Positions 10,312 through 28,701 of a stretch of 29,340 bases of DNA are shown here, one piece after another. A program made the translations under genes and the position numbers. Position 1 is the stretch's first letter. Every line of letters starts with the position of its first letter. The DNA comes from a virus: IMG/VR virus record IMGVR_UViG_3300033688_000038, positions 1-29,340 of that record, one strand, 5' to 3'. A model generated the notes under the pieces. The model was not told where the DNA came from and ran no database searches. It was given only the letters and a program-made list of their open reading frames with translations.

Positions 10312-10983
10312 ATGTTTAAGAAGACTTTACTTGCTGCTGTATTGAGTTTAACTGCTGTTTCTGCTTTCGCAACTGAGGGTGTTGATAAATCAACCACTTG
10401 GTCTAATATCTATGTAGATGGTATCCATTCTGGTTTTAGTGATGAAACTGGTGAACATGATGTAGCTGGTCAGGTTGGTGTTGAAGGTGGTTTTGATTAT
10501 GATAAATTAAGTATGTATGGTTTCGCAGAGCATAACTTCACTGACAATGCTGAATTCTTTAAACTTAGCGGCCATTATACAGTGCTTGATACTAATGTGA
10601 CACTATACAGTCAGGCAACACATTTTCAAGGTGAAGGTTTTGATTCACAAACAGGTGTACTTGGTTTGGGTTATAAACTAGGTGGTGATGGTTGGTCAGT
10701 TAAGCCTTTTATTGGTTATAATGTTAACTCTGATGGTAATCAAGAAGATGGTGGTGTAATGGTTGGTTGGTCTGGTTTCAAAGTCATTGGTACTGGTTTA
10801 TCAGTGTCATCTTGGCATGAAACAGTGGTTACTGATGAAATTACAGCTAATGGTGCTGTTGGTATCTGGCAAGACATCTCTCAACGTGTTTATGTAGGTG
10901 CTCACTATGCCTACCATTTCAATACACGAGGTAATGATGGTTATGGTGATGCCTTACTATTACGTATTGGTATGCATCTATAA
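10312..10983 (+). CDS. outer-membrane beta-barrel protein, probably Tsx/OmpK (nucleoside channel)-like
   Basis: Signal peptide MFKKTLLAAVLSLTAVSAFA; Gly/aromatic amphipathic strands; segments MYGF, VKPF and G.MVGW resemble OmpK/Tsx-family proteins; GGAG SD. Confidence 0.7.
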   Translation: MFKKTLLAAVLSLTAVSAFATEGVDKSTTWSNIYVDGIHSGFSDETGEHDVAGQVGVEGGFDYDKLSMYGFAEHNFTDNAEFFKLSGHYTVLDTNVTLYSQATHFQGEGFDSQTGVLGLGYKLGGDGWSVKPFIGYNVNSDGNQEDGGVMVGWSGFKVIGTGLSVSSWHETVVTDEITANGAVGIWQDISQRVYVGAHYAYHFNTRGNDGYGDALLLRIGMHL

Positions 10984-10991
10984 TAGATAAT

Positions 10992-11014
10992 GGGCGGCCT
11001 TAGGGTCGCCTTTT
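10992..11014 (+). terminator. intrinsic terminator
   Basis: GGCGGCC-TTAG-GGTCGCC followed by TTTT. Confidence 0.85.
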
Positions 11015-11029
11015 CTGTAGGTATTGATT

Positions 11030-11314
11030 ATGAAATGTCCAAAATGTTATAGTGAAATGAAAGTAAGAAATGGAAGATTTGGTGATTTTTACTTCTGTCC
11101 TAAACAATATAGTGGTTGTAAGCAACCCACAATAACTAAGAATCCAAAACGAAGTGAGGCTTCATTAATACTAAGGTCACTAAACTATACACCTGTTTAT
11201 CAAGAATATCGGACCCCAACACCTCCACAACGAATAAGGTCGTGTGCGTGTGGTCAGAATTTGTTTGGTATTGGTATTGATTATTGTAAAGCATGTGGTC
11301 ATTGTGCATCATAA
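11030..11314 (+). CDS. topoisomerase-type C4 zinc-finger protein
   Basis: CPKC...M..RNGRFG.F..C......C motif plus a second CAC..CxxC cluster. Confidence 0.75.
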   Translation: MKCPKCYSEMKVRNGRFGDFYFCPKQYSGCKQPTITKNPKRSEASLILRSLNYTPVYQEYRTPTPPQRIRSCACGQNLFGIGIDYCKACGHCAS

Positions 11315-11537
11315 AGGACTACTATGAACAACCTTGATTGGTGGCAAAGAGAGGCGCTGTATCGGCATATAAGTAGTGTAGTTCATGGGCCTATAATTAG
11401 GTTGCCTCAATACAGAGTAAAGGCTAATAAAGTATCTTGGAAGGCTAAGGTTAGATATTCTGATCAGTATGAAGATACATCTGGTTCTGTACTTTTAAAA
11501 GATTTACACAAACACAACCCATATTAGGAGATTTTGA

Positions 11538-11672
11538 ATGAGTTATAATCAGTTTGATAATAGTTGGCGTCCTGAGCCTGGTAAATATGTTGGAGCTAAA
11601 GATCCTGAAGATGATGGTCTATGTAAATACTGTGGAGCTGAATGGGGCTACAGCAGTTGCCCTTACTGTTAA
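11538..11672 (+). CDS. zinc-finger microprotein (44 aa; not in ORF track)
   Basis: AGGAG SD; CKYC...CPYC. Confidence 0.55.
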   Translation: MSYNQFDNSWRPEPGKYVGAKDPEDDGLCKYCGAEWGYSSCPYC

Positions 11673-11841
11673 TTAGAGAAGAGTATGACTGAAGAAGATT
11701 TAAAACTATACAGTGATTTTCAACAAGAGAATTATTCTAAGAACATCCAAGTATTTATTGACATGGATAAGTTTGATATCCCAGAAAATACATTGACTCT
11801 AAAAGAACTTCAAAAGAAGTATGCCAAATATAGGATTAATT

Positions 11842-12258
11842 ATGCTAAAGTTTAATGAGACAAAAGTTACTCTACTGAATACATTTGTATTAACAATTGA
11901 CGGTATGATTGGTGATGCTGATGGTACAGCCACTCTACGAAAAGAGTTCAGTGACACAGAAGAGAATCATAAAATCTTAGATGAGTTACTATCAATCATA
12001 AATAAATATGAATCAAAATATCATTACCTTGGAATCCTAGAAGATCCTGAGTTTGGTAAATTCTTCGATGAAGAATATGGATTTGATGATGAAACTGGAG
12101 ACCCTCTTCCTGGTTTTGAAAAGGGTAACCCATACTACATAGGTTGCTGGCCATGTGAACCATATGGTTGCGAGAAGTGTGAAATGGAAGGTTGGTTCCT
12201 TTCCTATCATGATGACATGGGTAGAATGTTAGGTGTTACATATGAAAAGGATGCATAA
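11842..12258 (+). CDS. hypothetical acidic protein
   Basis: AGGA SD before ATG 11842. Confidence 0.65.
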   Translation: MLKFNETKVTLLNTFVLTIDGMIGDADGTATLRKEFSDTEENHKILDELLSIINKYESKYHYLGILEDPEFGKFFDEEYGFDDETGDPLPGFEKGNPYYIGCWPCEPYGCEKCEMEGWFLSYHDDMGRMLGVTYEKDA

Positions 12259-12979
12259 ATGAATACATTTGGAGATGTTGTAAAAACAAACATGGATAGT
12301 GGATTACTTGAACACCTTTCTCAATTGGAGTTTAAATTCCAATCTTGGTATAAGAACTCTTTCACTTATACAGTATCTGTTGGAGAAGATATTTACTCAC
12401 TACACATACACCCTGAGTATAGAGACACTCTGTATGCGTCAGAAACCTTTGAAAGTTTAGAATGGTCTGAGCCTTCTTATTTTTATATCTATAAGAATAA
12501 AGAAGAATTGTTTAAATGGAGTGAATAATGCGTGACTTTGATGATATTGATAAACAAATGGATGAGCTCTTCAAAGAGCTTCTAAGTATCCCTGTTGACA
12601 CAAATCTACCAGATGCAATGGTTGGTAAGCCTTATCCTTGGAAATCTTTAGAATCAATCAAGGGTGGCATGAAGAATGGTGAATTGTCCTGTATATGTTC
12701 TGGTAGGAGTTGTTATCGATTTTGAATTACTGTACTGATTGTAAATACTGTTTAAAGTCTTTTAGTTTTGATAGTGATCCAGTTTGTATTGCCCCTGTTG
12801 TTCCTGAACAGATTGACCTAACTAATGGTAAAATTGTTGTATATAATAAATCTTGCCATTATATGAGGCACCCTGGTTATTTCTGGAATGGTGTTGGTGA
12901 ATATTGCCCTCATCATGTAGAAAAAGAAAAAACTTTATTTCAAAAACTTATTAAATTATTTAAATAAAAGGCACACACT

Positions 12980-13189
12980 ATGATTACTAATAATTACTTT
13001 ATTCGTTCTACTTTCCAAAACACCAATTCTACTCACCACAACCATGGTAAATTCTGGAACTGTGAAGAGCGTCAATATTTAATTCAAGCCATGCGTATGG
13101 GTGTTCGTCCAAGTGTAATCTGTAAAACATTAGGACGTTCTCGTAACTCAATAGCTATGAAATTAGTGGACATGGGTATTAATGGTTAG
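12980..13189 (+). CDS. small helix-turn-helix protein
   Basis: W..EE..YL......G.....I..TLGRS.NSI pattern (Myb/GcrA-like HTH). Confidence 0.6.
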   Translation: MITNNYFIRSTFQNTNSTHHNHGKFWNCEERQYLIQAMRMGVRPSVICKTLGRSRNSIAMKLVDMGING

Positions 13190-13461
13190 TAGTTCTAATT
13201 ATCATCCAATAGAAGATGAAGTTGAGTTATGGGAATCTGGTGTAATGTATGACCCTTCTGGTGAGAATACACACTATAAAGAGAGGCCATGTATTTGTTG
13301 GAAATGTGAGGATTGATTGTGACTGATTATTATCGTGATTGTAGATATTGTAGTGCTGATTGGCAGGAAGAACATGAAGATACATGTCCTCTCTATAAAA
13401 AGACAACAGGACAGACAGCGAATTTTAATAATCTAAGAAAACTACATGTGGGGTATGATTG

Positions 13462-13605
13462 ATGGGTGATTTATTAAACGAACGTAAGTGCCCTAAGTGT
13501 GGTTCAACAGATTTAACTAATATAGGTTGTGCCCCTGATGGTATACGATTAAATCTACTGTTTGATTGTAATAAATGTTATTACGGATTTGAGGCTGATT
13601 ATTAA
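13462..13605 (+). CDS. zinc-ribbon microprotein (47 aa; not in ORF track)
   Basis: CPKCGS ... CNKC; TGATG and TAATG coupling with both neighbours. Confidence 0.6.
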   Translation: MGDLLNERKCPKCGSTDLTNIGCAPDGIRLNLLFDCNKCYYGFEADY

Positions 13606-14273
13606 TGAAAACTCTTACAAATTATGCAGCAGGTACTACAGCCAATTGGAATGGTAAGAAACTTCCATATGGTTGGGTTATGGTTAAACGAAATTGCTTT
13701 CTAAACATTCATCTAATTATGAAGAAGTATGATGATCCAAATAATACTAAAGAGGCTGTAAAGCTTCTTCTTGAACGATTGGAGAGTTGATATGTTTGTA
13801 TGGATTATATATGATTACGTTGAGGAGTTAATTCTAGGTACATACAATGCTGATATATGGAAACGTCTAGATGCAGCTGATGAAGTAATGCGTATTCATG
13901 ATATTAATAATGATTATTTAAATAACTACTGTGATTTCTACCACGAGGAGGTTAAATAATATGAAGACATTTGCTATAACAAGTTATACCGATTATGGTC
14001 AAGTGATTGATATAATCAATGCTGATACTCTTGATCGGGCAAAAGAACTTACTGGTATTACTGACCTTGTTTGGCGCAACTATGACATTGAAGAGATAGA
14101 TACTAAATCAGAAGGGATTGTGTTTGTAAGTGGAGGAAGTTACTAATGAATGATTTAAAACCAATTCATACTATATTATTCTATAAGTATGGTGAGCGAC
14201 CTGAAGGTTATCTACCAATGAAAGGAGGATCTAATCCACACTACCAATACTATGTAAGTATTGAGGCTGAATA

Positions 14274-14723
14274 ATGAGTAGAGTATACATAATCTCATCA
14301 GAGGAGGCATGGAGCTTCTTTAATACAGATCACTACTGGCAAGAAAATAGAGTTGATGGTAGGACTATTGAAGATTTAGAGTTTATAATGAAAGATGGTT
14401 ATCATATTGGTTATTACCATAATGGCACCTTAGTATGTGTCACTAAAGTAGATATGATTAATAACATGGACGCAGAGGTTCATACTTATGTTAATCCTTC
14501 CTATATAAGGCTCTCAGAGGTCGCTCTAAGGGCCCACATACAGTTCCTATCCAACGACCAAGGTTATACTAGATTGTATACCACAAGCTCTAATGTGAAT
14601 AAAAGCTGCTATAATTTCTTAACAAAGAGATTAGGTTTTGAAACATACAATATAGATACAGAGTGTAATGTTACCAGGGATGGTCAACAACTTATTATAT
14701 ATAGGATGATGAAGACATTATGA
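14274..14723 (+). CDS. putative GNAT-fold acetyltransferase
   Basis: EVHTYV.P.Y and N.....F..RLGFE motif; about 150 aa. Confidence 0.55.
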   Translation: MSRVYIISSEEAWSFFNTDHYWQENRVDGRTIEDLEFIMKDGYHIGYYHNGTLVCVTKVDMINNMDAEVHTYVNPSYIRLSEVALRAHIQFLSNDQGYTRLYTTSSNVNKSCYNFLTKRLGFETYNIDTECNVTRDGQQLIIYRMMKTL

Positions 14724-14935
14724 TTGGATTTACAAACCCACTTAAAGAGCGTATTTGTGAACTAGAAGCTGAAGTAAAGAAGATCAGCATTGAAAAGGAC
14801 ATACTAGAGGTTGGATATAAACGACTTTCTATTAATGCATCTATTCCACAAAAACCAACAACACTACCACCATCTCATTATGGATATAATGATAGCGTAC
14901 CTTCTGGCTCTAATAATTAATAAGGGATTACAATT

Positions 14936-15193
14936 ATGACTGTAATAGTACGAAATATAGATGATCTTCATAACGCAATTGATTTTATTATAGAAAGCGC
15001 AGAAGATTCTATTCAAACAGAGATGTATACAGAAGAGGCTGTGGATGATATCCGAGAGAGTTCATATGGAGAGGGTCACTCTGACGGACTTGAGGAGGGG
15101 TATGATGAGGGGTATAAAGATGCTCTTACATCTATCACATTAGAGACTGCTTTAGATATGGTAATCTCTGCTGGTTACATTGTAGAGCAGTAG
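14936..15193 (+). CDS. acidic protein with GxxxG repeats
   Basis: YGEGHSDGLEEGYDEGYKD. Confidence 0.6.
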   Translation: MTVIVRNIDDLHNAIDFIIESAEDSIQTEMYTEEAVDDIRESSYGEGHSDGLEEGYDEGYKDALTSITLETALDMVISAGYIVEQ

Positions 15194-15420
15194 AGTTGTT
15201 TTTGTGTAATACATATTATACTTAGAGGAAAGTCTTGATGAATCCAGGAAAAGAGGTTAAAACTAACATAATGACATGGAGTGTTGTTATATTATGCCTA
15301 GTTATATTATATAGTTGTTAGGATTATGTATAGTGATTATGGAAATGTTATTTGTATTCTATGTGGGATTGCAGTTTTAGTAATCCTTTTTATTGGTATT
15401 TTTATAGGTTATTTATTATC

Positions 15421-16029
15421 ATGACAGATTTCTACACTGGTATTGGTAGTCGTGCGACTCCTAGTGAAGTGCTTACCCTTATGACTAAGATTGCTCTAGC
15501 TCTCAAAGAGAAAGGTGTTGTACTTCGTTCAGGAGGGGCAGCTGGGGCTGATACAGCATTTGCTAATGGTGCTGGCAATGTCTCCGAGGTATATGTACCT
15601 TGGAATGGTTTTGGTGAGGCTGGAAATAAACACTACCATGGTGAAAGTGGAGTTGTAGCCCTATCTATGATTTCAACTAAACTTAAATATAGGTGCTATG
15701 AGGTTGCTGGAGAGATACACCCTGCGTGGTTTGCCATGCGTAGAGATTATACTGGCAAGATGGTCCCTGTGCTATCTAGTGCTGTCAAGGCGCTACATGC
15801 ACGTAATGTATTACAAGTCAATGGCCTTACAGGTGATAAATCTAAATTCACTGTATATTGGACAGAGGTTGATAAGGCAGGAAACCCTAAAGGTGGTACT
15901 GCTACTGCTGTAAACCTAACCAAATCTTATAATATCCCTACTTTTAACCTATTTGTATGGGATCAATGTTTAGAGTTTAAGAAGTTTCTACAAGATAATT
16001 ATAATATTGATATGGAGATTAGATACTAA
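15421..16029 (+). CDS. DprA/Smf-like (SLOG superfamily) protein
   Basis: YTGIGSR.TP, LRSGGA.GAD.AF, HARN, GGTATAV, IP.FNL motifs; start revised to ATG 15421. Confidence 0.8.
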   Translation: MTDFYTGIGSRATPSEVLTLMTKIALALKEKGVVLRSGGAAGADTAFANGAGNVSEVYVPWNGFGEAGNKHYHGESGVVALSMISTKLKYRCYEVAGEIHPAWFAMRRDYTGKMVPVLSSAVKALHARNVLQVNGLTGDKSKFTVYWTEVDKAGNPKGGTATAVNLTKSYNIPTFNLFVWDQCLEFKKFLQDNYNIDMEIRY

Positions 16030-16273
16030 TGAAAGATTATACTGTTAAATTAAAGAATGGTTATTCTCATGGATTCAAAGCAGCACGTATGATACAGTGG
16101 AATGGTTTACTTACTTGGGTAGATAAAGATTCTAATTCAGTATTCTTTTGTTGTCCTAGTCAATTTGAATCTTGTTCAGTAGGAGATAAAGTAACTACTT
16201 CTTTACCTTTTTAACTCTTATTACAGTGGATATAAAGAAATATACAATTATTTTAACTTATTTTAATAAATAA

Positions 16274-16303
16274 GTGAGCTTTTTCCGAAAATTATTGTAT
16301 ATA
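16274..16303 (+). promoter_or_regulatory. putative phage-specific (ECF-sigma-type) promoter, copy 2
   Basis: GTGAGCTTTT-N11-TTGTATATA, intergenic, A/T-rich upstream. Confidence 0.75.
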
Positions 16304-16442
16304 TAAGTATATAAGAAATACTGCTTAAGAAGAGATGTTAAATAAAGAGATTAAATAATCTTTATAAGAAGTACTTCTAAGAAGTATTTCTCTAGTAAAA
16401 AACAATTGATTAAATAATTATTAAATAAGTGAGATTAAAAAT

Positions 16443-17183
16443 ATGACTACAACTACATACGCTATCCCAACTACTCGTTCTCCTTCTGCTAACGCTATCA
16501 AATATGATGCATTAGAGTGTGATGTTTATGAGGCTCGTATTGTTCGTTTCATCGGACTGGGTGTTCAAGAGCAACGTGCTTATCAAGGTCAAGCAAAAGA
16601 TCCTGCGTTTAAGTGTTCTGTTCAATTTGAATTAATTGGTGTGGATGCTACAGGTACTAAAGCTGATGGTACTGCCATTGAGCCTCGTCCTGCATGTGTG
16701 TTCCAAGATTACTTTCTATTCCCTGGTGCTAAACGAGGTGGTGTATTCGACCTTTGTTCTGCTGTTGATCCAAGTATTGTTGCTGCTCCTCGTGATTTGA
16801 ATTGGTTTATTAACAATTTAGGTGCTCCTATTATGGTTCAGGTTGGTTCTTACCAAACTCGTGATGGTGTTACTAAGAATACTGTTTCTGCTGTTCAGCC
16901 TATGAGCTCTCGAACTGCTGCTCGTCTTGATGCTGCTCGTTCTGATTTTGTTGGTTTTATTCCTTATGCTGATGATGAAGCTAATGCAGCTTCTTATGAG
17001 AAGATGTTTAAATTCCAGCGTGATATGCTAATGGATGCTAAAGATGTAGCTCACATCCCTTATGCTGGTCGTGAGGTTATCTTTAACAAAGAAGGTTCTG
17101 CTCCAACTGCTCCACGTGTACAACCACAAGCTACAGCCCCACAACAAGGTGGTGTTGATTTTGATGATGATGTACCATTTTAA
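16443..17183 (+). CDS. phage single-stranded DNA-binding protein (putative)
   Basis: Acidic tail DFDDDVPF after a P/Q/A linker; Y.ARIV..I.LGVQ.Q..YQG N-terminus; strong codon bias; next to replication genes. Confidence 0.75.
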   Translation: MTTTTYAIPTTRSPSANAIKYDALECDVYEARIVRFIGLGVQEQRAYQGQAKDPAFKCSVQFELIGVDATGTKADGTAIEPRPACVFQDYFLFPGAKRGGVFDLCSAVDPSIVAAPRDLNWFINNLGAPIMVQVGSYQTRDGVTKNTVSAVQPMSSRTAARLDAARSDFVGFIPYADDEANAASYEKMFKFQRDMLMDAKDVAHIPYAGREVIFNKEGSAPTAPRVQPQATAPQQGGVDFDDDVPF

Positions 17184-17210
17184 TAGATGATTAAAGTCTA
17201 GGATATACTT

Positions 17211-17237
17211 AGCCCATCAAGGATGGTGGGCTTCTTT
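17211..17237 (+). terminator. intrinsic terminator between SSB and sigma genes
   Basis: AGCCCATCA-AGGA-TGGTGGGCT followed by TCTTT. Confidence 0.7.
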
Positions 17238-17254
17238 ATAATAATGGATTTATT

Positions 17255-17842
17255 ATGTCTAAAGATAACAAGAAGTATAGGGGTTTTTCTTACTCTATTA
17301 AAACTCCAACTAAAAAACATTATGTATATTCAGAGCTGTATGCTGAGTACTACCCACAAGTTTACCGTATGGCAATGAAATATTCAGACACCATACAAGA
17401 TGCAGAAGATGTTACCCAAGAGATTTTTATGAGGTTACTGATTAATTGGAATAGGTTAGATTTTAGAAATCTAGCTAAATGTATTTCAATTACATCACAA
17501 CAAACACATAGCAATTGGTTTAAGTATTACGTAAAGCGTGGTGCTGATGTTTACTCCTATGATGATTTGTTCTTACCTGATGCTGATTGGAATCATCCAA
17601 CTTCAGATTTTGGAGACCCATATCAAGAAATGATCAATAGTAATTTATTAGGTTGTTTTGAAGATAAATTTCGTATATTAAAAGATGATGATAAGAGATT
17701 ACTTAATCTTATATATGGAGAGGGTTATACAATTGTAGAAGCTTCAGAAGTACTTGAGATATCAAAAACTGCTGCTGAAAACAGGGTATGGCGAGCTAAA
17801 CAATTAATGGAAACTTGTTATAAGAGGGAAGATTTTCTATAG
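17255..17842 (+). CDS. ECF-type RNA polymerase sigma factor
   Basis: Region 2 YPQVYRMA....QDAEDVTQEIF; region 4 HTH EGYTIVEASEVLEISKTAAENRVWRAK; 195 aa, no region 3. Confidence 0.88.
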   Translation: MSKDNKKYRGFSYSIKTPTKKHYVYSELYAEYYPQVYRMAMKYSDTIQDAEDVTQEIFMRLLINWNRLDFRNLAKCISITSQQTHSNWFKYYVKRGADVYSYDDLFLPDADWNHPTSDFGDPYQEMINSNLLGCFEDKFRILKDDDKRLLNLIYGEGYTIVEASEVLEISKTAAENRVWRAKQLMETCYKREDFL

Positions 17843-17850
17843 GGGGTGGT

Positions 17851-18066
17851 ATGGATGTTATTTACCAAGGTGATATGTACAATGTGCTTGCTGTTAAAAA
17901 GGCAAACAAGTATATAATTGTCAATAAGGTAACTGGGATTATAGAAGGCGAAGAGACTAAGATGCCAACAGCCATTGGAATGGCTAAAGCGTTACAGGGT
18001 GCTTTGCTTAAGATCATCAAGGAAGATGAGAATGAGAGAGACACTAAAGCGCAAGGTATTAATTGA
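17851..18066 (+). CDS. hypothetical protein
   Basis: 71-aa ORF, GGGGG SD. Confidence 0.6.
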   Translation: MDVIYQGDMYNVLAVKKANKYIIVNKVTGIIEGEETKMPTAIGMAKALQGALLKIIKEDENERDTKAQGIN

Positions 18067-19018
18067 TGCAGATATTTTTCGATATCAAGTAGGTGCTGTT
18101 AATATGAAGCATCCTTTTTTAGAGGATGAATTTATACCTGCTTCTATTGAATATATTCACAAGCTAGTAGATGATTTAATTAAAAATACGATTACAGCAT
18201 GTGGAGCAACAGACTATGTGTGTGTATTATCAGGAAAAGGTAATTTCCGAGACGATATTGCTAAACAAGCTGTATACAAAGGAAATCGAAACCCTAATCT
18301 TACTAGACCATTCCACTTCAAAACAGTGGAAGATCACATCAAGGAGTCGCATCCTTATTTTGAGACTTCTGGCATTGAAGCTGATGACTGGCTGGGTACA
18401 CAACAGTATGAGGATTGGAAAGAAACAACTTTCAATGAACTCACTAAAATATATGGAGAAACTAATCCAAGCAAATTAGCAACGATTATTGCCTCCAGAG
18501 ATAAAGATTTACGAACAGTACAAGGGTGGCACTACTCATGGGCTTGTGGTAAGAAACAGCCAGAGAAACCTTTGTATTATATCTCCCCTTATGATGGTAT
18601 GCATATGTTCATGTACCAGATGTTAATTGGTGATAATACTGATAATATTGTTGGGTGTGGCATTCGCTCAGAAGTTAAATGGGGTTTTGTAAAGGATGAG
18701 GATGGTAATTTTATCCTTGACGAGAATGAGAAAAAGATACCAAATATGGTATTACGTCGGAAAGGTATTGGTAAATCTAAAGCTATTAAACTTTTAGATG
18801 AAGCTAATGATGTTCGTGACATGTTAGGTATTGTTACCAAAGAATATAAAGAGTTATTCCCAGATAATTATGAAGAAATCATGATTGAGAATGCTCGATT
18901 ACTATTCATTGGGCAATTAGTTGATAGTCTATTTGAGTGGTCTTGGTTAGATAAATATCTTGACATTAAGAGCCCAACTACTGTGCTACCTCCAGAGGTT
19001 TATGATGACAAAAGCTAG
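18032..19018 (+). CDS. 5'-3' exonuclease / RNase H (T7 gp6, FEN-like)
   Basis: LIDAD, NFR....YKGNR, EADD, SRDKDL, GD.TDNI.G motifs. Confidence 0.92.
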   Translation: MRETLKRKVLIDADIFRYQVGAVNMKHPFLEDEFIPASIEYIHKLVDDLIKNTITACGATDYVCVLSGKGNFRDDIAKQAVYKGNRNPNLTRPFHFKTVEDHIKESHPYFETSGIEADDWLGTQQYEDWKETTFNELTKIYGETNPSKLATIIASRDKDLRTVQGWHYSWACGKKQPEKPLYYISPYDGMHMFMYQMLIGDNTDNIVGCGIRSEVKWGFVKDEDGNFILDENEKKIPNMVLRRKGIGKSKAIKLLDEANDVRDMLGIVTKEYKELFPDNYEEIMIENARLLFIGQLVDSLFEWSWLDKYLDIKSPTTVLPPEVYDDKS

Positions 19019-19114
19019 TCTATCAAAGGAAATTGAAGAATTAAAAACTGCAGATAAGAAGCGCAAACGCGCAGCAGCATATGAAGTTTATTTAAAAAAT
19101 AAGGAATCTAAATA

Positions 19115-20045: not shown

Positions 20046-20049
20046 TATA

Positions 20050-20078
20050 AAAGGGAGGCCTCGGCTTCCCTTTCTTTT
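20050..20078 (+). terminator. intrinsic terminator
   Basis: AAAGGGAGGC-CTCG-GCTTCCCTTT followed by CTTTT. Confidence 0.85.
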
Positions 20079-20503
20079 ATTTGGAGAAAAGTATGAGTAG
20101 TGGTCGTCGTATACAAGAATACATGCGTCATTTTAAGATTAATGATCTTATGTTTAAAACTAGAACAAATGAATATTTAGAAACAGAGTATCAGATATAC
20201 CACAAACGTGATATTGTATATGATTCAACAAACCAATATGCTGTAGAGGCATTCCTAAAGGGTTATGTACTGGGGCGAGAGAATGGCTAAGACTTTAGAT
20301 TACCGTGGAATGGAGCAGGTTTGCTCACTACAAGATGTACTCGAATATGCAGCTGAGCATGGGTATGACAAGGTTTTATATGGATATGAAGATATCCCTC
20401 ATATAGTTGATAAAACGCTTCATATGAGCCCTTACAATCGTTTACACCCTGCTACTTCTGAAGAAGAGCAAGCTTATTATGATATATCAAATGGGGTAAT
20501 GGA

Positions 20504-20953
20504 ATGCCACAATATCGGAAAGGGAATATGCTTGTCCACCTCGATGAGTGTAACTATGCATGTATAACCACTAATGCAATGATTAGAAAAGATAACCATT
20601 TAGTTATGGGTCGAGGTATTGCTCAACAAGTGCGTGATAGTTTCCCTGGTATTGCTGAAGACTTAGGAACTTCTATAAGTTTATTAGAAGGTAAATTACC
20701 TAAATATGGTCTACTGAGGAGTAAGTTATATCCGAGTATGATTGCTTTCCAAGTAAAATATCATTGGCATGATGAAGCTGATTTAGAACTTATTAAATAT
20801 AGCACTACTATGCTAACCAATGGGGCGAACAAAAATACTAATAGGGTATACTTCTTGAACTTCCCTGGGATTGGTAATGGGAAATTAAGTAGAGAAGATG
20901 TGCTGCCTATTATAGAGCAGTTACCTAATAATGTAACAATCTGGGAATATTAA
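20504..20953 (+). CDS. macrodomain (ADP-ribose binding/hydrolase) protein
   Basis: KGN, ITTN....VMGRGIA.Q....FP, F.VK.HW, P.IG.G.L motifs. Confidence 0.85.
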   Translation: MPQYRKGNMLVHLDECNYACITTNAMIRKDNHLVMGRGIAQQVRDSFPGIAEDLGTSISLLEGKLPKYGLLRSKLYPSMIAFQVKYHWHDEADLELIKYSTTMLTNGANKNTNRVYFLNFPGIGNGKLSREDVLPIIEQLPNNVTIWEY

Positions 20954-21359
20954 TATGTTCGAAGGTAAGTTATACATAACATGCTATGAATTGAACGGAG
21001 AACCTGCCGTAGAGGTTAGTATTCCTAATGGAAAATCTTGCGTTGATTTGAATGAAGACTCTATTAGACAAGCTATAGTTGATTTACAGGAAGCATTAAA
21101 ATGATTTCAATAAATAGAGCTCTGGATAGTAAAGCTAGTGCTAATAGAGTGCATTGGATATGCAAAAATCATATTGCACTAAAAGATTATACAGCAGCAG
21201 AGCTGTATGATGAAGTTTGGAAACATGAATCTCTTAAAGATGATGATTATTATGAAGAAATGTGTAATGGAGTTCTTGATTCTTTGACAGGTTGGTGTCA
21301 CCCCTCATGGAGTTTGGAAAACTTAAGCAATCATGTTTTTCTTGGAAAGGAGTTACAAT

Positions 21360-21848
21360 ATGACGATAGCATTTGAAATTGAATATAAATACCTTTGCCC
21401 ATATCTTACTTTATGGATTTTACATGACAACTATGATGTAGTTTCCTCAAATTTTATAAGCCAGTATTACTTACCTGATGGTACACGGTTACGTAAAACA
21501 ACTTTAATCGATAATTCAGATGAAAAGTATTTTATTACAAAGAAAACCCCTACTGATGATCCACGAGTGTGGATTGAAGATGAAAGATTTGTAACTAAAG
21601 ATGAATATCTTGAGAATTGGCGAGAAGGACTACCTAGTATTCATAAAATAAGAGCAAAGGTTTTATATGAAAATAACGTTTGGGAAGTTGATTTTTATGA
21701 TGGCTTAGATGGATTGACTACAGCAGAACTTGAAGTACCATCTATTGATTATGAATTTAAAATACCATCATTCTGTACACAAGATGTTACAGCAGATGTA
21801 GCATACAAGAATTATAATCTAGCAAAAATAGGAACAACTTATGAGTAA
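21360..21848 (+). CDS. CYTH-domain (triphosphate tunnel) protein
   Basis: EIEYKYL, RLR, K.R, WEVD, AELE, DVT....Y.N motifs. Confidence 0.88.
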   Translation: MTIAFEIEYKYLCPYLTLWILHDNYDVVSSNFISQYYLPDGTRLRKTTLIDNSDEKYFITKKTPTDDPRVWIEDERFVTKDEYLENWREGLPSIHKIRAKVLYENNVWEVDFYDGLDGLTTAELEVPSIDYEFKIPSFCTQDVTADVAYKNYNLAKIGTTYE

Positions 21849-22414
21849 AGGTAAATTAGTGTGGATTGCCGAGCACCCAACAAATCCTGAAAGTAAGGAG
21901 GTTCGTTTTGAAGAGCCTTACACTGAAGGAGAGCATGTCTATGGTGGTGAAGATGGCTATTCTCCTTATGTTAAGTGGAAACAATATGTATTAATTGAGG
22001 TGGAATAATGTTAAAACAAACTTACTGGGATTACTGGTCAGGTGATGCTAACTATGAATTTCATGGTAAAGAGTTCACAAGGCTTTTTAGTGGTGAGTGG
22101 GAGTTTGATAACACTCCTTGTAATGAGCACATGCAATATATGCTAGAAGATGTATACCAAAAAGAACAAGAAAGAACATCTAAATATCAAGCTATTGGAG
22201 TTAAATTATGATTGTAGTAACTAATAATGAATATGGTTGGGATTGTGTAGTCCAGGTGTGTGCTTCAATGGAAGATGCAGTGTATTTCCTGAATACAGAT
22301 TTTCATCAGTATGACCCAAATGAGTATAAAACAGAATCTGAATTTGAAGATATTTGCTTTGTATTTACCGAAACTTCACTTTACACTAAACCAGAATAAT
22401 ATAGGATCATAAGC

Positions 22415-23524
22415 ATGGATAGCGTTACTTTATATGGTGCAACAAAAGGTGGTAAGTTTAAGCAATGGACAGTTCATACGGAAGGTGCGTATGTGGTCAT
22501 GACATACGGAGCAGTCAATGGAAAAATGCAAGTCAAGAAGATACTCGCTAAAGCGAAAAATGTGGGAAGAGCTAATGCGACTACTGCGGAGCAACAAGCA
22601 ATCTCAGAAATGAACTCAAGAGCCGCAAAACAGTGGGATAAGTGTTATCGTGAAACCTGTGAAGATGCTGCTAACGTAGGGCGTCTATTACCGATGCTAG
22701 CAAGTGACTATACTAAAGTTGGACATCGTATCAACTACCCTTGTTGGGTCTCTAGGAAGCTCGATGGGGTGCGTTGTATCACTGTTGTGGATAAAGTTAA
22801 GAAGACTGTTCGTATGATCAGTCGAGGAGGCAAAGATTATCCAGTGCCATCTCACCTATACAAAGATTTAATCCTATTAGCAGAGTCAACTGATACTTGG
22901 GAGTTTGATGGTGAGTTATACATCCACGGTATCAGTTTACAGAATATTGTATCTGCTGTTAAAAAACCTAACCCATTAACCCCTCGTATTGAATATCACA
23001 TCTTTGATGTCCCAGATGAAGAAGCAGAATGGCAATACCGTTACATGGATTTGGAAGCCATGCAGGTCTGGAAGCTTGCTAATAGAGATAAGTGTAAGCA
23101 GATTAAAATTGTAATGAATGAGGTTGCTGAGAATGAAAGCCATGCTCGTGAGTTCATGAATGAGTGGATTGAAGATGGATATGAGGGTATTATGCTTCGT
23201 AACCGAACTGGTATGTATGAGTCAAATCACCGTTCAGGTACACTCCAGAAATGGAAAGACTTCCAAGACTTAGAAGCTAAGGTACTCCGAGTTACAGAGG
23301 ACAATATTGGAGAAGGTGTTTTACATGTCCGTAGCGCAGAAGGTGCTGAGTTTAAATGTAAAATGCGTGGCAATCATGAATATCGTTCTTTCGAGAACCA
23401 AAATAGCCTAATTGATCAGTGGATTAATGTCCGCTTTCAGCAATTTACAGATGATAATATTCCTCAATTTCCAGTAGGAACTGGTGTTCGTGCTTGTACT
23501 CCAGAAGGTGTTCCACTTGATTAA
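22415..23524 (+). CDS. ATP-dependent DNA ligase
   Basis: PMLA, KLDGVRC, FDGELY, FD, EGIMLR, RS....K.K; N-terminal WGR-like extension. Confidence 0.95.
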   Translation: MDSVTLYGATKGGKFKQWTVHTEGAYVVMTYGAVNGKMQVKKILAKAKNVGRANATTAEQQAISEMNSRAAKQWDKCYRETCEDAANVGRLLPMLASDYTKVGHRINYPCWVSRKLDGVRCITVVDKVKKTVRMISRGGKDYPVPSHLYKDLILLAESTDTWEFDGELYIHGISLQNIVSAVKKPNPLTPRIEYHIFDVPDEEAEWQYRYMDLEAMQVWKLANRDKCKQIKIVMNEVAENESHAREFMNEWIEDGYEGIMLRNRTGMYESNHRSGTLQKWKDFQDLEAKVLRVTEDNIGEGVLHVRSAEGAEFKCKMRGNHEYRSFENQNSLIDQWINVRFQQFTDDNIPQFPVGTGVRACTPEGVPLD

Positions 23525-24218
23525 TCAACCACATAAAATTGTATCACAATATTACTTAGATAATATCTGTGAATTAGCTGAGGTGAGGTGTGACGAAAGT
23601 CACCCTCAAGCTTACCACCATTTAGCTTGGATGTGCCACACAATAATCCATAAGCCAATGTCAGACACTAAAGCCAACAGATGGTTAGGGTATGTCCAAG
23701 GTGTGTTAGCTGTCAATGATAAGCTTTGTGTAGCTTCTGAGAGAACTAGAACTAGAGAAACATTTGGAGGATTATAAGAATGACTAAAGTACTAATTACA
23801 CGCCACTGGTCTGGTTACTGTCGCGGTTATACTGAGCATGAGCTTGAAGTTGCACCAGAAGAATTACAAGAGCTTATGAACAGGAAAGAGATTGTAGGTG
23901 AGTATTTCTGGGAAGGGGATGAGGTGGATATTAATATTATCCGAGATGATACAGAAACAGATCATTATGAATTTGAGGTTGTAGAGTAATGAATTGGATT
24001 CTAGTTATAATGGTTGTTATGGGTGGAGGTAAAGGTTTAACAACCTTACCTCACAATTTCAAAACACTATCTGAGTGTCAAGAGGTTGGTCGGTTATGGA
24101 GAATAAATGATGACGTCTCAATTTTTGATGATAAATCAAAAGAAGGTATTGATGCTAATAAATACTTTAAGTGCCTACCTGTAAAACCTAACCACAATAC
24201 AGAATGGAAATAATAACA

Positions 24219-24593
24219 ATGAGCACACCAGAATTATTTACACCATATTATGTCATGAATGATACTAAGCGTAATGTAAACATTGCTATTGATTTTGATG
24301 ATACTATTACCACTGATAAAGAAATGTGGCTCAAAATTATCCAAGTAATGAAAGATTGCGGACACACAATTAAGGTAGTAACTGCCCGTTTTGATGTTGC
24401 TGATTTGAATGATGACATCAGAAATTTTACCCTTAATCTTGAAATAGATGCCATCTTCTGTGGAGGATTGCAGAAAGAAGCTAAATGCCGTTCACTAGGT
24501 TGGATGCCAGATATTTGGATTGATGATTTGCCTTGGGCAATACCTTTACCATCTAAGCTAGTAAAACGTGCTACAGATATTGGTGTAATTTAA
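24219..24593 (+). CDS. HAD-superfamily phosphatase (cap-less)
   Basis: IDFDDT, VTAR, K, IDD motifs I-IV. Confidence 0.85.
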   Translation: MSTPELFTPYYVMNDTKRNVNIAIDFDDTITTDKEMWLKIIQVMKDCGHTIKVVTARFDVADLNDDIRNFTLNLEIDAIFCGGLQKEAKCRSLGWMPDIWIDDLPWAIPLPSKLVKRATDIGVI

Positions 24594-24599
24594 TTAAAC

Positions 24600-24621
24600 G
24601 GGCATTCGTGCCCTTTATTTT
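24600..24621 (+). terminator. intrinsic terminator
   Basis: GGGCA-TTCG-TGCCC followed by TTTATTTT. Confidence 0.8.
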
Positions 24622-24797
24622 CTAAATCAAGGAATGATTATGAAAACTATTGAAGTTAGTATTAAAATGATTGCCACTTACGAAGAAGTAGATATGACTC
24701 CACATGATATCAAGAAGATAGAAATGTCTATTGAATCTCACATGTGTAATGAATTCGCTGAGTTTGAATCTATTGACGTAAAAGTGGAGGATTATTA

Positions 24798-25025
24798 ATG
24801 TCAGGACTAATGGTTACTATATCAGTAGAAGAGTATAAACGATTACATACCTCAGAGCAAAAACTAGACTACCTTGAAAGTGCTGGTGTAGATAACTGGA
24901 GTGGTTATGATTATATGTATGAACTAATGGAAGATAGTGATGATGAAAATATTGAAGATATTTCTTTAGAGAAATTTATCAAAGAATATATAACTCCTGA
25001 GATGTTATCAAGTGATTATGAGTAA
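24798..25025 (+). CDS. small phage protein with GVDNWxGY motif
   Basis: VTIS.EEY..L and LE.AGVDNWSGYD; GGAGG SD. Confidence 0.65.
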   Translation: MSGLMVTISVEEYKRLHTSEQKLDYLESAGVDNWSGYDYMYELMEDSDDENIEDISLEKFIKEYITPEMLSSDYE

Positions 25026-25028
25026 TTT

Positions 25029-25382
25029 ATGAAACTCTATACAATACAAAATGGAAAGTATCGAAAAGCTAAAGGTCAGTTTGTAGATACTACTGTGAAG
25101 ACAGGTGTGGTGTATTTTGCACCAACCTGGGATATGGTATTACAATATAAAAATAAAATAATTTGTGAGGATGTGTATATTTCTTTGTATACTAATCTCA
25201 TGCGTCAATCATTCAAAGATAATAATCTTGTTTGGCTAAAGTTATTTGATTTTGAAGAAATAACCCTTGGTTGTTATTGTAAAGCTGGTGATTTCTGTCA
25301 TCGACACTTATTAGTAGAAATGTTACTAAAAATTGGTGAGAAATATAATAGACCAGTTGAATATTGTGGAGAGGTAGAATGA
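25029..25382 (+). CDS. DUF488/DUF4326-like protein
   Basis: FAPTWDM and LGCYC.....CHR..L motifs. Confidence 0.65.
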   Translation: MKLYTIQNGKYRKAKGQFVDTTVKTGVVYFAPTWDMVLQYKNKIICEDVYISLYTNLMRQSFKDNNLVWLKLFDFEEITLGCYCKAGDFCHRHLLVEMLLKIGEKYNRPVEYCGEVE

Positions 25383-25551
25383 GTGCTATTTTCAAGAAAG
25401 ATAGTTCAGGTGATTGGTATAACTCTGAAAATGGATATTATTTAGGAAACCATGATACATATGTACACCTCTTAGAGGTGGGACACCCTTTAGAGACTAT
25501 AATTAACACGATCATGTACGGTGTAAATAATAGTTTATCAGGAGAGTAAAA

Positions 25552-25962
25552 ATGAAACGTTATAACTTATTCAAAACAAGTGCTCCAGGTTGGGAATTAC
25601 GTGGTGCTGGTATTAAAATGGTTATTGATTTACTAGAAGAACATACATGTAAGATTTGTATTGAAGATGAAACAGATGTTACATTAAAAGGTTACACTGA
25701 GGTTTGGTTAAATGAATTACGTGGGACTTGTTGTGCTTGTGAGTTTGTTGTAGAAACAGAACCTGACAACTTCCTTGATAGATTAGAATTAGAGTATGAT
25801 GAATTAGTTGATAAATCACATGATTTAAAATTATTCCTTGAAAATCCACAATCAGTAGATGTATCTGAATGGGAGTATACAATGATGAAGTCTCAATTAC
25901 ATGCAATGGAATCATATAGCTCAGCATTACTATCTAGAATCGCACACCATAATAAGGTTTAA
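25552..25962 (+). CDS. hypothetical protein: Cys-containing N-domain plus C-terminal coiled-coil hairpin
   Basis: C..C / C..C pairs; RL..E..EL.....L..F ... Q..AM..Y...L..RI; AGGAG SD. Confidence 0.65.
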   Translation: MKRYNLFKTSAPGWELRGAGIKMVIDLLEEHTCKICIEDETDVTLKGYTEVWLNELRGTCCACEFVVETEPDNFLDRLELEYDELVDKSHDLKLFLENPQSVDVSEWEYTMMKSQLHAMESYSSALLSRIAHHNKV

Positions 25963-26146
25963 TTATGAATAAAGTTTATATTGTCTCATCAACACATCAC
26001 ATGGGGATGGACGGAGATTACACAGAAATTGTATGTCTCACACGAGATAAGAATAAAGCACAAGAAGAGTGTGATAAAATAGAAGCTCTTCCTTATGAAG
26101 ATTATAATTGGTATTCAGGTGATATTGAAGAGTGGGAGTTAGTATA

Positions 26147-26731
26147 ATGAGTAAGAAGGTTTATATCGGTGGGCATTGTTTGAATCGTGGTGGACAACTA
26201 CAACGATCTGAAGAAGCTCAAATGGTTCGGGAACTAGGTCATGACATCTACTGTCCTCAAGAAAACAAAGAAATTAACGACAAATCTAATGCTGTTCAAG
26301 AAGCTCTTGCTGAACGTATCGTGAGTCATGATACTGATGCTATCTTGTGGTCTGATACTGTTATTATTGAGCCTGATAATTGCGCACTCGGTACTCATAT
26401 TGAGTTAGGTCAATTACTAGGTATGCGTGATTTGTCCGAAATGATAGTGGAGATAGCTAACACTCATTTTGAGAATAACCGAGGTAAGACAGAAGACCTT
26501 GATTATCTCTTGATTTCGGAGATTTTAAAGTTATGTATGGAACAGCTTAATCGTAAAGTTTACCCACACCTTGAAGATATTCGTCTATTAGGTCCTACAG
26601 GTGATGGTTATCGGTCTACGTTTGGAATCAATGCCTATGTAACTGGAGCTTGTATTAAACTTGCTAATGACCCTGTGGGAGCACCTGATGGCTTCTATAC
26701 TATAGATCAAATCAAGAAGGAGTTATCATAA
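26147..26731 (+). CDS. nucleoside 2-deoxyribosyltransferase / N-glycosidase family protein
   Basis: VYIGG, Y.PQE, D..AI..SD, GT..ELG (catalytic Glu), N.Y motifs. Confidence 0.8.
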   Translation: MSKKVYIGGHCLNRGGQLQRSEEAQMVRELGHDIYCPQENKEINDKSNAVQEALAERIVSHDTDAILWSDTVIIEPDNCALGTHIELGQLLGMRDLSEMIVEIANTHFENNRGKTEDLDYLLISEILKLCMEQLNRKVYPHLEDIRLLGPTGDGYRSTFGINAYVTGACIKLANDPVGAPDGFYTIDQIKKELS

Positions 26732-26906
26732 TGCCTATATTATTATCCACTGCACTGGGTATCTTATTAGCAGCAGCAATTATTTCCTTTATTGTACTCT
26801 TACGTGATATGTACTCAGAGACTTCTTCTACTGTACGGAGGGTAGAACGATTGGAAACAAAATACTGGGAGTTACGGAACCAAATTAGTGATTTGGAGAA
26901 TAAATA

Positions 26907-27302
26907 ATGGCTCATATTTTTATTGAATACGTTAGTGATTATTGGGATTGTGAAACTTGTGGTGGTAGTTCTGCCGATGGGGCTACTGTTGAAATAGATG
27001 GTAAACCCTTCGGTGATTTTTACCCAGCAGCACATTGCTATGATAGCTTAACTTATAGTAATGATGATATTTATTGCTCTTTATTAGAGCATTTAGGGAT
27101 TACAGTTAAGAAAGATGATCACGGATATCTTAATGAAGATTTTAACTTATCTGACACTCTTGAAGCCAACGGACACACGCTGGATGAGGGTTTTATAACA
27201 ATTAGTAATTATGACTATATGGATGACGATGATGATTGGGATAATCTATATGAAGAAGGTTTAGACCCAGAAGAGCATGAGGAGTGGGTTGAAAATGTTT
27301 AA
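26907..27302 (+). CDS. hypothetical acidic protein with DCETCG motif
   Basis: GGAG SD; 131 aa. Confidence 0.65.
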   Translation: MAHIFIEYVSDYWDCETCGGSSADGATVEIDGKPFGDFYPAAHCYDSLTYSNDDIYCSLLEHLGITVKKDDHGYLNEDFNLSDTLEANGHTLDEGFITISNYDYMDDDDDWDNLYEEGLDPEEHEEWVENV

Positions 27303-27419
27303 ATTTGAATATAAATGCTGTGAAGGTGGTGGGCCAATGTCAGCGGGATGTTATCATGATCATTGTAAAGGGGCTAGGGTTATAAAGATACCAACTTTCT
27401 TCAAGGAGAAAGGTGATAA

Positions 27420-28085
27420 GTGATAACTTTCAAAAAGATATGGGCAGCTATCGCCCTAACTACTGTGCCAATCGCTAGCATTGCCTCAGGAGCTCCTGCT
27501 CTAATTACTGGTGTAATGTTAGTTGGTATTATCTTTGTACTAGGTATTGCTTTTAGTTGGAAACATGCAAACCTATTTGGAGCACTAACTGCTGCTGGTT
27601 TTGGTTTCATATCCTTTGATCAAGGTCTGATAGGTAATGCAGTAATTAACTGGTTGTTCGTAATACCTATGTCATTGTATGGATGGTGGTCTTGGTGTAA
27701 TAATAATGAAGTAGATGTTGCTGAGAAAAGAACACTGGGTCTAATTAAGTTTAATTGGCTACTTATGGGTGCTTCAGCAGCTATCTCGTTTGTGTATCTA
27801 CTAATATTATCCTTACCAGAAGGTGTTGTTTTATTCAAATCACCTATACCAATTGATAGTGTATTACTTGACGCTGTGACTACAGTATTACCCGTAGCTG
27901 CTACGTTGTTATTAGTTAACTCATACAAAGAACAATGGTATCTATGGATTCCATATAACATGCTTGAGATGTTCTTGTGGGTGATGGTGTATATGACTAA
28001 CCCTGCACTATTACCAATACTAATCATGAGAGCTGTGTTCCTTATAAACTCCATAATCGGGGCTTATGAGTGGAATAAGAAGTAA
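27420..28085 (+). CDS. pnuC: PnuC-family (nicotinamide riboside-type) membrane transporter
   Basis: Multiple TM helices; N..FG, YGWW.W, LDA.TT, EQW..WI..N motifs. Confidence 0.88.
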   Translation: MITFKKIWAAIALTTVPIASIASGAPALITGVMLVGIIFVLGIAFSWKHANLFGALTAAGFGFISFDQGLIGNAVINWLFVIPMSLYGWWSWCNNNEVDVAEKRTLGLIKFNWLLMGASAAISFVYLLILSLPEGVVLFKSPIPIDSVLLDAVTTVLPVAATLLLVNSYKEQWYLWIPYNMLEMFLWVMVYMTNPALLPILIMRAVFLINSIIGAYEWNKK

Positions 28086-28092
28086 TTAAAAT

Positions 28093-28113
28093 AAGGAGCC
28101 TTGAGCTCCTTTT
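28093..28113 (+). terminator. intrinsic terminator
   Basis: AAGGAGC-CTTGA-GCTCCTT followed by TT. Confidence 0.75.
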
Positions 28114-28137
28114 CATTTATATAAACAAGGTAGTATT

Positions 28138-28701
28138 ATGGCTCAGTTATATTTTAACTTCTCAACAATGAATGCTGGTAAATCAACTTCATTATTACAA
28201 TGTAACCACAACTACAAAGAGCTGGGGATGACCACAATGCTCTTCACATTTGCAGGTGATGACAGGTATGGAATTGGAAAGATAACATCTCGTATTGGCT
28301 TAGAGGCTGATGCTAGTTTGTTTGATAAGGATACCGACTTACTTAGCTCTGTTTATAATTCATCTGAAGAAAAACTACCTGATTGTGTTTTAATAGATGA
28401 AGCTCAATTCCTAACTAAAGATCAAATAGAACAACTTAGTACACTAGTTGATTATTATAATGTACCTGTTATGTGTTATGGATTGCGTACTGATTTCCAA
28501 GGGAACTTATTTGAAGGTTCTGCTTCTCTGTTCGCTGCTGCGGACAAACTTGTTGAGATGAAAACATTATGTCGTTGTGGATCTAAAGCAACACATGTTG
28601 TACGTATTGACAAGGATGGTGTTATAGTAAAAACTGGTGATCAGATTCAGATTGGAGGAAATGATAGTTATATCTCTGTATGTAGACGTCATTTTAGTTA
28701 A
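28138..28701 (+). CDS. tdk: thymidine kinase
   Basis: MNAGKST, SRIG, DEAQF, YGLRTDF, C.CG ... IGG...Y.SVCR.H. Confidence 0.96.
   Translation: MAQLYFNFSTMNAGKSTSLLQCNHNYKELGMTTMLFTFAGDDRYGIGKITSRIGLEADASLFDKDTDLLSSVYNSSEEKLPDCVLIDEAQFLTKDQIEQLSTLVDYYNVPVMCYGLRTDFQGNLFEGSASLFAAADKLVEMKTLCRCGSKATHVVRIDKDGVIVKTGDQIQIGGNDSYISVCRRHFS

Follow-up and report, generated by a model that had tools for sequence, protein, structure and literature searches.

A phage gene set that may import deoxynucleosides through two membranes and trap them as nucleotides

We analysed a stretch of phage DNA of 29,340 nucleotides (hereafter, the window), which is the first part of a 124,877-nucleotide virus record that is 100% complete by CheckV. 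Its genes all lie on the plus strand, and among them are genes for an outer-membrane barrel of the Tsx/OmpK type, a deoxynucleoside kinase (dNK), an enzyme from the family of nucleoside deoxyribosyltransferases (NDT), an inner-membrane facilitator of the PnuC family and a thymidine kinase (TK). We favour the reading, to which we give slightly better than an even chance, that these five genes form a salvage route by which the phage imports deoxynucleosides and traps them as nucleotides. The short-loop barrel would pass (deoxy)nucleosides through the outer membrane, and the PnuC-family facilitator would let them diffuse through the inner membrane. TK and the dNK, which is of the deoxycytidine kinase (dCK) type, would then phosphorylate the imported deoxynucleosides and make uptake one-way, following the metabolic-trapping logic known for Pnu transporters. 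The NDT-family enzyme would swap bases among the imported deoxynucleosides, matching the pool to phage DNA with a GC content of about 35% (the value of the window). An earlier reading of the window's sequence (the original prediction) had proposed a possible complete nucleoside import-and-salvage pathway made of these five genes and a HAD phosphatase. We find its interpretation partly supported, and more strongly than the window alone would allow, because genes that are dispersed in the window are contiguous in related phages.

All six genes named in that prediction are intact open reading frames (ORFs) on the plus strand with the starts it gave. The folds or families of the proteins of the five-gene set, their intact catalytic residues, the repeated clustering of the genes elsewhere and a genome without genes for de novo deoxynucleoside triphosphate (dNTP) synthesis or NAD salvage are established here. 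What the barrel and the PnuC-like carrier would transport, in which direction the flux would run and which reaction the NDT-like enzyme would catalyse are inferred, and the word "complete" was an overstatement. The complete genome of 124,877 nucleotides has no class I or class II ribonucleotide reductase (RNR), NrdD, ThyA or ThyX, and its dNTP supply genes are salvage genes only. The closest relative found, L007, encodes an RNR large subunit and thioredoxin just upstream of its dNK gene (L007:1-1504), while the genome of the window has no RNR.

Gene neighbourhoods in relatives supported the grouping. The NDT-like gene lies no more than 1.7 kb upstream of the PnuC-like gene in 14 of 14 loci from four phage lineages, and the two genes often abut or overlap. 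The loci named are the window, L007, L008 (a T4-like contig), L018, L019, L020, L021, L036 (Cronobacter phage vB_CsaP_009, a cultured member of the Grimontviridae), together with five T5-like Vibrio phages (L002 and L028-L031). In six of them (the window, L007, L018, L019, L020 and L036), the PnuC-like gene has a TK, dNK, NDT-like, NrdD or deoxynucleoside monophosphate (dNMP) kinase gene beside it. In L007, the order is NDT-like, two small ORFs, PnuC and TK, with RNR and dNK further upstream, so that the adjacency of PnuC and TK in the window recurs there. With x for any other gene, L018 reads NDT, PnuC, x, NrdD, ligase, dNK, and L019 reads TK, x, ligase, NDT, x, dNK, dNMP kinase, x, PnuC. The tightest cluster is that of L020, where dNK, barrel, NDT-like, PnuC-like and dNMP kinase genes follow one another with gaps of 11-66 nucleotides; its barrel is 35% identical to that of the window.

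A similar association was seen for the barrel. Of the 11 other loci for which DNA was available, 10 have an inner-membrane transporter gene at a distance of up to 2 kb from that of the barrel. In L020 this partner is PnuC-like, while in L022-L027 and L037-L039 it is a VUT-like protein, encoded directly beside the barrel in L022-L027 and L039 and no more than 2 kb away in L037 and L038. The VUT-like family (phrog_22163) is a conserved multi-pass membrane protein of about 196 residues which always adjoins or lies near the barrel, in T7-like and 7-11-like phage contigs (copies at L022:87-680, L023:5398-5988, L024:9402-9989, L037:962-1552, L038:6779-7369 and L039:8752-9096). PnuC and this family are not related to each other (hhalign probability 0.2%), and since two unrelated transporter families stand beside the barrel, it is the role that is conserved, not the gene. 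Kinase genes are found at these loci as well: the order in L037 is TK, VUT-like, ligase, dNK, barrel, x, dNMP kinase, and in L038 VUT-like, TK, barrel and, further on, dNK; barrel and dNK genes are neighbours on the contig encoding P0004; and a pair of dNK paralogues is seen in L024, L025 and L027. A barrel beside a carrier of either family, together with deoxynucleoside kinases, is what a two-membrane uptake-and-trap route predicts.

The original prediction had proposed examining co-occurrence across related phages, and this comparison gave the two associations, 14/14 for NDT with PnuC and 10/11 for barrel with transporter. It had also conceded that dispersal of the genes made their link hypothetical. 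This weakness is answered by relatives in which they stand side by side (L020, L037 and L038), although in the window they do not form one operon. More broadly, and tentatively, with the balance tilted somewhat against it, these loci may represent a portable two-membrane deoxynucleoside uptake-and-trap system in phages of Vibrionaceae-type hosts. Its parts would be a stripped-down Tsx/OmpK channel, an interchangeable PnuC-like or VUT-like facilitator and deoxynucleoside kinases, with NDT and a dNMP kinase added in some phages.

The barrel gene (10312-10983, plus strand; phrog_37748) encodes 223 residues. Its Sec-type signal peptide has the cleavage site AFA|T and lacks a lipobox Cys. Its AlphaFold2 model has 12 strands at a predicted local distance difference test score (pLDDT) of 90.8. 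In a structure search, the best match was Tsx with bound thymidine (1TLW; Z 20.8, root-mean-square deviation 2.6 Å over 190 residues), followed by NanC (Z 15.8) and KdgM, the two at about 15.5. The likeness to Tsx that the original prediction had proposed to check held, and a better match to a non-Tsx family was not seen. Membership of the KdgM/NanC family was rejected, as Tsx scored 5 Z units higher and homologues of the barrel match Channel_Tsx. Sequence searches were less direct. The protein itself had no match in Pfam, where the gathering threshold of PF03502 was not reached; the profile of its family did not reach Tsx among PDB sequences, giving a weak match to NanC only (E 0.4); and a word-indexed protein search returned no protein other than itself. 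An exhaustive phmmer search found 30 homologues, and 12 of 29 of these matched Channel_Tsx PF03502, with a best E of 1e-47. The cellular homologues, from Enterovibrio, Photobacterium, Endozoicomonas and V. parahaemolyticus, are labelled OmpK/Tsx. The barrel also matched NCBIfam PRK11528 (YdiY-like) at E 1.5e-15 and 57.9 bits, far under the cut-off of 282.

We therefore describe the barrel as a 12-stranded, short-loop member of the Tsx/OmpK superfamily and as a proposed outer-membrane channel. Like E. coli Tsx and Vibrio OmpK (TC 1.B.10, PF03502, 1TLW), it combines a Sec signal with a 12-stranded barrel, and an alignment with E. coli Tsx has the YGF, P, W and WxE motifs in common. It differs in size, its precursor having 223 residues against 294 in E. 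coli Tsx (about 70 fewer), with the long outer loops, which in Tsx serve phages and colicins as receptor sites, deleted, and in its C-terminus, which is ...GMHL rather than ...YNF. Unlike Tsx and OmpK, it is encoded by a phage beside inner-membrane transporter genes (in relatives), falls outside the PF03502 cut-off and is closer to PRK11528; its nucleoside specificity is a proposal. In 10 of the 12 strands, the polar face, presumably toward the lumen, is better conserved than the lipid face, and invariant aromatic or ionisable residues on the lumen face are Y34, D36, Y69, F71, E73, F82, K84, H88, Y99, Q101, W168, E170 and R218. This pattern would fit a specific channel.

The PnuC-like gene (27420-28085, plus strand) starts with GTG and encodes 221 residues, which score 91.5 bits against PF04973, over its cut-off. 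Residues 5-220 align end to end with residues 19-230 of 4QTN, and the motif W173-x-x-W176-x-x-x-N180 is present. The few cellular relatives of its clade are distant (the nearest at 23-27% identity; proteins from metagenome-assembled genomes of Clostridia), and none of them has NDT, dNK or TK beside it, which makes them uninformative about the substrate. In the window, the NDT-like and PnuC-like genes are part of a packed run, bounded upstream by a hairpin at 24600 and downstream by a terminator-like hairpin (28093-28111, plus strand) between the PnuC-like gene and tk. Within this run, a 41-codon Cys/His-rich ORF (27295-27420, plus strand) has an ATG overlapping the preceding stop and a TGA overlapping the PnuC-like GTG, which suggests translational coupling along the NDT-PnuC unit.

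The NDT-family enzyme (26147-26731, plus strand; 194 residues) scored 23.9 bits against PF05014, under the 28.8-bit cut-off, and matched phrog_1817, a well-conserved phage family, at E 1e-45. Its profile found the NDT entry 7M5H in the PDB at E 5e-6, and the top 20 Foldseek matches were NDTs. Tyr6, Asp62 and Glu86 are invariant across 25 homologues and correspond to the Tyr/Asp(Asn)/Glu catalytic triad of NDTs, in which Glu is the nucleophile (PMC12884076). The enzyme shares its Rossmann-like fold and triad with type II NDTs (7M5H of E. faecalis, 6EVS, CtNDT 8PQR) and with phage DmtZ, and a PQEN..INDK motif with 7M5H. Unlike them, it has a phage-specific C-terminal extension of about 60 residues, in which PHxEDxR and several Arg residues are invariant.

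Both kinases would trap imported substrate. The dNK gene (19419-20045, plus strand) matched PF01712 at E 1e-24 and 87.8 bits against a cut-off of 27. Its top 24 PDB matches are dCK, dNK, dAK/dCK and dGK enzymes, with dCK at E 1e-11 and Dm-dNK also among the best. An ERS motif is present, and the ERS and RxRxxE lid motifs align with those of solved relatives. The PHROG name "thymidylate kinase" would make this protein a dNMP or dTMP kinase; this was rejected, as dCK and dNK stand closest to it among solved proteins, and models of dTMP kinase scored far under their cut-offs on this ORF. By sequence, the protein is a deoxynucleoside kinase of the dCK/dGK/Dm-dNK type, not a nucleotide kinase, and it is proposed to trap deoxyadenosine, deoxycytidine and deoxyguanosine. 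The last gene of the set (28138-28701, plus strand), which begins 53 nucleotides after the PnuC-like gene, matched over its full length and past the curated cut-offs: PF00265 at E 4e-51 and 173.8 bits, and NF003300 at 271 bits against a cut-off of 195. This makes it unambiguously a thymidine kinase of the TK1/bacterial type, the proposed trap for thymidine and deoxyuridine.

These matches confirmed five of the identities given in the original prediction, while the sixth, that of a HAD phosphatase, is less certain. The gene for this minimal HAD-like candidate (24219-24593, plus strand; 124 residues, phrog_4919) shows a DxDxT motif and a pattern of motifs I-IV (DxDxT ... T/S ... K ... DD) spotted by eye in the translation, and its language-model neighbours are labelled "putative phosphatase" and "HAD family hydrolase" at 0.96. 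It had no match in Pfam, NCBIfam or the PDB, and its identification is the weakest of the six. Among the relatives compared, it occurs in L007 only and shows no tie to the module. The evidence does not support a place for it in the pathway, and we drop it from the set.

Several observations weigh against the proposed import route, and they are set out here with the alternatives that they suit. The main rival, which we consider unlikely, is counter-defence: the PnuC-like protein would import nicotinamide riboside (NR), and the host NadR would restore the NAD+ that defences of the Thoeris or Sir2 type deplete. In that case the NDT-like enzyme would be unrelated or would handle pyridine ribosides, and the barrel, dNK and TK would be independent genes. 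In its favour, the carrier scores 71.7 bits against TIGR01528 (the "nicotinamide riboside transporter PnuC" equivalog), for which the cut-off is 42.45, and it keeps WxxWxxxN with its N180. A phage PnuC is a proven NR importer in the NARP3 pathway, in which PnuC and a NadR-like enzyme rebuild NAD+ (PMC13464706). The same packed unit that holds the NDT-like and PnuC-like genes also holds a homologue of Sequestin (25552-25962, plus strand; 136 residues), of which residues 73-131 match PF21825 (crAss001_48/Sequestin) at E 2.6e-13 and the first 70 or so residues form an extra N-terminal domain. Sequestin proteins act as phage-encoded sponges for 3'cADPR, the signal molecule of Thoeris (bioRxiv 2025.07.12.664507), and such a gene would suit an NAD-related counter-defence too. 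A Sequestin gene also precedes the NDT-PnuC pair in L007 (and, weakly, in L008), and in L023 one follows the barrel directly; a DarG-like macrodomain gene lies nearby in the window.

Gene content speaks for deoxynucleoside import over this alternative. The original prediction had raised the prospect of a nadR gene elsewhere in the genome, but none was found, and NMNAT (PF01467) and Nampt are absent from the complete genome, in which the sole, sub-threshold match to AAA_28 is the dNK ORF. No NadR-like gene occurs in the NDT-PnuC loci, and the five complete or near-complete T5-like Vibrio phage records with NDT-PnuC have no NadR-like, NMNAT or Nampt gene. NARP3 is defined by the PnuC and NadR pair, and E. 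coli NadR alone fails to counter Sir2-HerA (PMC13464706). The residues of the carrier are also suggestive of a cargo other than NR. In the phage NR transporter Bas30_87, each of the replacements N45A, Q94A and N180A abolishes NR binding (PMC13464706), and the corresponding residues of the PnuC-like protein are G36, S85 and N180. The NR-coordinating Gln (Q99 by the chain numbering of 4QTN and Q94 in Bas30_87) is thus Ser85 here, and the position is S, T or G in 15 of 18 members of the clade. Against this, the Gln is kept in the NDT-paired Cronobacter phage 009 and in three distant members (P0051-P0053), and since several NDT-paired members of the clade keep it, the argument from Ser85 is a weak one. 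The counter-defence account explains neither the constant NDT-like partner nor the clustering of barrel, dNK and dNMP kinase genes in L020.

A second set of opposing observations concerns the barrel: in the window, 16.4 kb separate its gene from the PnuC-like one. A promoter-like motif of the form GTGAGCTTTT-N11/12-TTGTATATA (10233-10263, plus strand) lies 49 nucleotides upstream of the barrel gene, and the other five genes do not have it in front of them. A terminator-like GC hairpin (10992-11011, plus strand) directly 3' of the gene makes it a monocistronic unit. A tblastn search with the barrel found no match in 50,697 INPHARED phage records, so its family is known only from metagenomic or uncultured phages and from Vibrionaceae genomes. 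All the genes considered here lie in early or DNA-metabolism regions, where some nearness to dNK or TK would be expected anyway. The promoter-like motif and terminator of the barrel and its distance from the other genes would suit an explanation with no joint pathway at all. The barrel would then be a surface "moron" acting in superinfection exclusion, in competition with host OmpK or as a general pore. All that TK, dNK and the NDT-like enzyme would do is recycle deoxynucleosides released from host DNA inside the cell, and the PnuC-like protein would have an unrelated role. OmpK is a known and common vibriophage receptor, the barrel lacks the long outer loops of Tsx, and in L023 its gene is in the company of late genes, with the small terminase gene on one side and the large one on the other. 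The NDT-like family, moreover, occurs in about 500 phages, mostly without PnuC (e.g. Staphylococcus phages). We nevertheless judge this explanation improbable. A surface role does not predict a transporter gene of either of two unrelated families within 2 kb of the barrel at nearly every other locus, nor does it account for conservation concentrated on the lumen face or for the operon-like cluster of L020. The deoxynucleoside reading is also challenged at the NDT-like enzyme, as dNMPs are possible substrates of the family too (PMC12884076). They are the substrate of DNPH1 and of DmtZ, and, as far as its sequence goes, the NDT-like enzyme could act on deoxynucleosides or on dNMPs.

The same import architecture could also serve another cargo, such as ribonucleosides or nucleobases, precursors of the queuosine type, or one of the B vitamins thiamine and riboflavin (cf. 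PnuT and PnuX), which we hold to be quite improbable. The Pnu family does include thiamine and riboflavin carriers, some NDTs accept ribonucleosides according to the PDB entry titles of CtNDT, and the alternative partner of the barrel, phrog_22163, weakly resembles the VUT/YhhQ carriers of preQ0/preQ1 (TIGR00697 E 0.004; viral Vut_1 Atlas clusters at 0.86-0.88). The neighbours, however, are the deoxynucleoside-specific TK and dNK and a dNMP kinase; genes for thiamine, riboflavin or queuosine are absent nearby; and the carrier has WxxWxxxN rather than the form ending in D of PnuT. The phage records with VUT-like and barrel genes, among them those of L024, L025 and L027, contain neither TGT nor QueC. 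On the same ground, we rejected a role of this pair in 7-deazaguanine modification of DNA.

Deoxynucleoside import by the five-gene set would belong with three known kinds of system: channels of the Tsx type, Pnu facilitators whose substrate a kinase traps, and the NARP3 of phages. NARP3, found in T5-like Salmonella and E. coli phages (Bas30_87 with the NadR-like Bas30_86), likewise places a Pnu facilitator beside an enzyme presumed to process its cargo (PMC13464706); a genuine NARP3 locus taken for comparison, that of Salmonella phage S133, reads NadR|PnuC. Bas30_87 and the carrier of the window have the fold, WxxWxxxN and N180 in common. The window differs in that the partner is of the NDT family and not NadR, the genome has no NMNAT or RNK, and Gly and Ser replace N45 and Q94. 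Unlike in NARP3, the neighbours of window-type PnuC-like genes are TK, dNK, dNMP kinase and the Tsx-like barrel. A second parallel is with Lactobacillus. The salvage pathway of Lactobacillus consists of NDT, dNK and TK, and together with PnuN it makes the same logical set, in a genome without an RNR of its own. The present set is that of a phage of a Gram-negative host and adds an outer-membrane channel, and the likeness drawn here is one of gene set. PnuN is cited in PMC7749635 as a Pnu-family member predicted to carry deoxynucleosides (Rodionov and Gelfand 2005). We found no paper naming deoxyribosyltransferase, phage and PnuC together, and neither module, NDT-PnuC or barrel-carrier, appears to have been described so far.

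Known phage nucleotide-supply genes act by synthesis inside the cell (RNR, ThyA/X, kinases), and phage PnuC has only recently been tied to the rebuilding of NAD+, in NARP3. Installing import of DNA precursors through two membranes would, if the proposal is correct, be a different strategy. A phage without RNR or thymidylate synthase could then replicate on DNA breakdown products found outside the cell, e.g. from lysed neighbours. Phage yield would be coupled to dissolved DNA and nucleosides in the environment, with the lysis of one cell feeding replication in the next. The proposal would also give concrete roles to the phage Tsx-like barrel (phrog_37748), to the NDT-paired PnuC clade and to the VUT-like phrog_22163, and would turn the PnuC-like clade into the first deoxynucleoside carrier in the Pnu family that is tractable. 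Behind the automatic label "NMN/NR transporter" on phage PnuC genes, there would then be at least two modules of distinct function, one paired with NadR and one with NDT.

Relatives of the barrel in Vibrionaceae and Endozoicomonas point to a marine gammaproteobacterium as the probable host. At the DNA level, positions 10000-29340 showed no similarity to known phages, and no tRNAs were found in the window. The nearest relatives of the family A DNA polymerase (5522-7591, plus strand; 689 residues), at 46-49% identity, are those of Salmonella phage 7-11, Cronobacter phages GAP52 and A24, Proteus phage Privateer and Aeromonas phage BUCT695. The relatives aligned in two or three pieces, residues 212-269 contain a weak PDDEXK-like stretch, and in BUCT695 an endonuclease gene splits the polymerase, which hints at insertions or mobile elements in this lineage.

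The motif GTGAGCTTTT-N11/12-TTGTATATA has three exact copies in the window (none in 100 shuffles), all on the plus strand. Besides the copy upstream of the barrel, they lie at 16274-16303, upstream of a 246-residue ORF at 16443 (phrog_6599), and at 28725-28754, upstream of an ORF at 28842. It is a candidate phage-specific promoter, possibly read by an ECF-like sigma factor encoded at 17255-17842.

Three further genes were noted. Outside the window, in the other early region of the phage (G000 117160-118305; L004:18161-19306), lies a full-length iron-containing alcohol dehydrogenase gene (PF00465 and PF25137, E 6e-76), an unusual auxiliary metabolic gene. The DarG-like macrodomain protein mentioned above (20504-20953, plus strand; 149 residues) is encoded just downstream of the dNK gene and matched NF048014 at E 5e-7 and phrog_335 ("phosphatase") at E 3e-19; it may be a counter-defence enzyme that removes ADP-ribose. 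Finally, an ORF of 117 residues (25029-25382, plus strand) matched PF22751 (active DUF488-N3 subclade) at E 1.3e-10 and is 96% conserved in L007.

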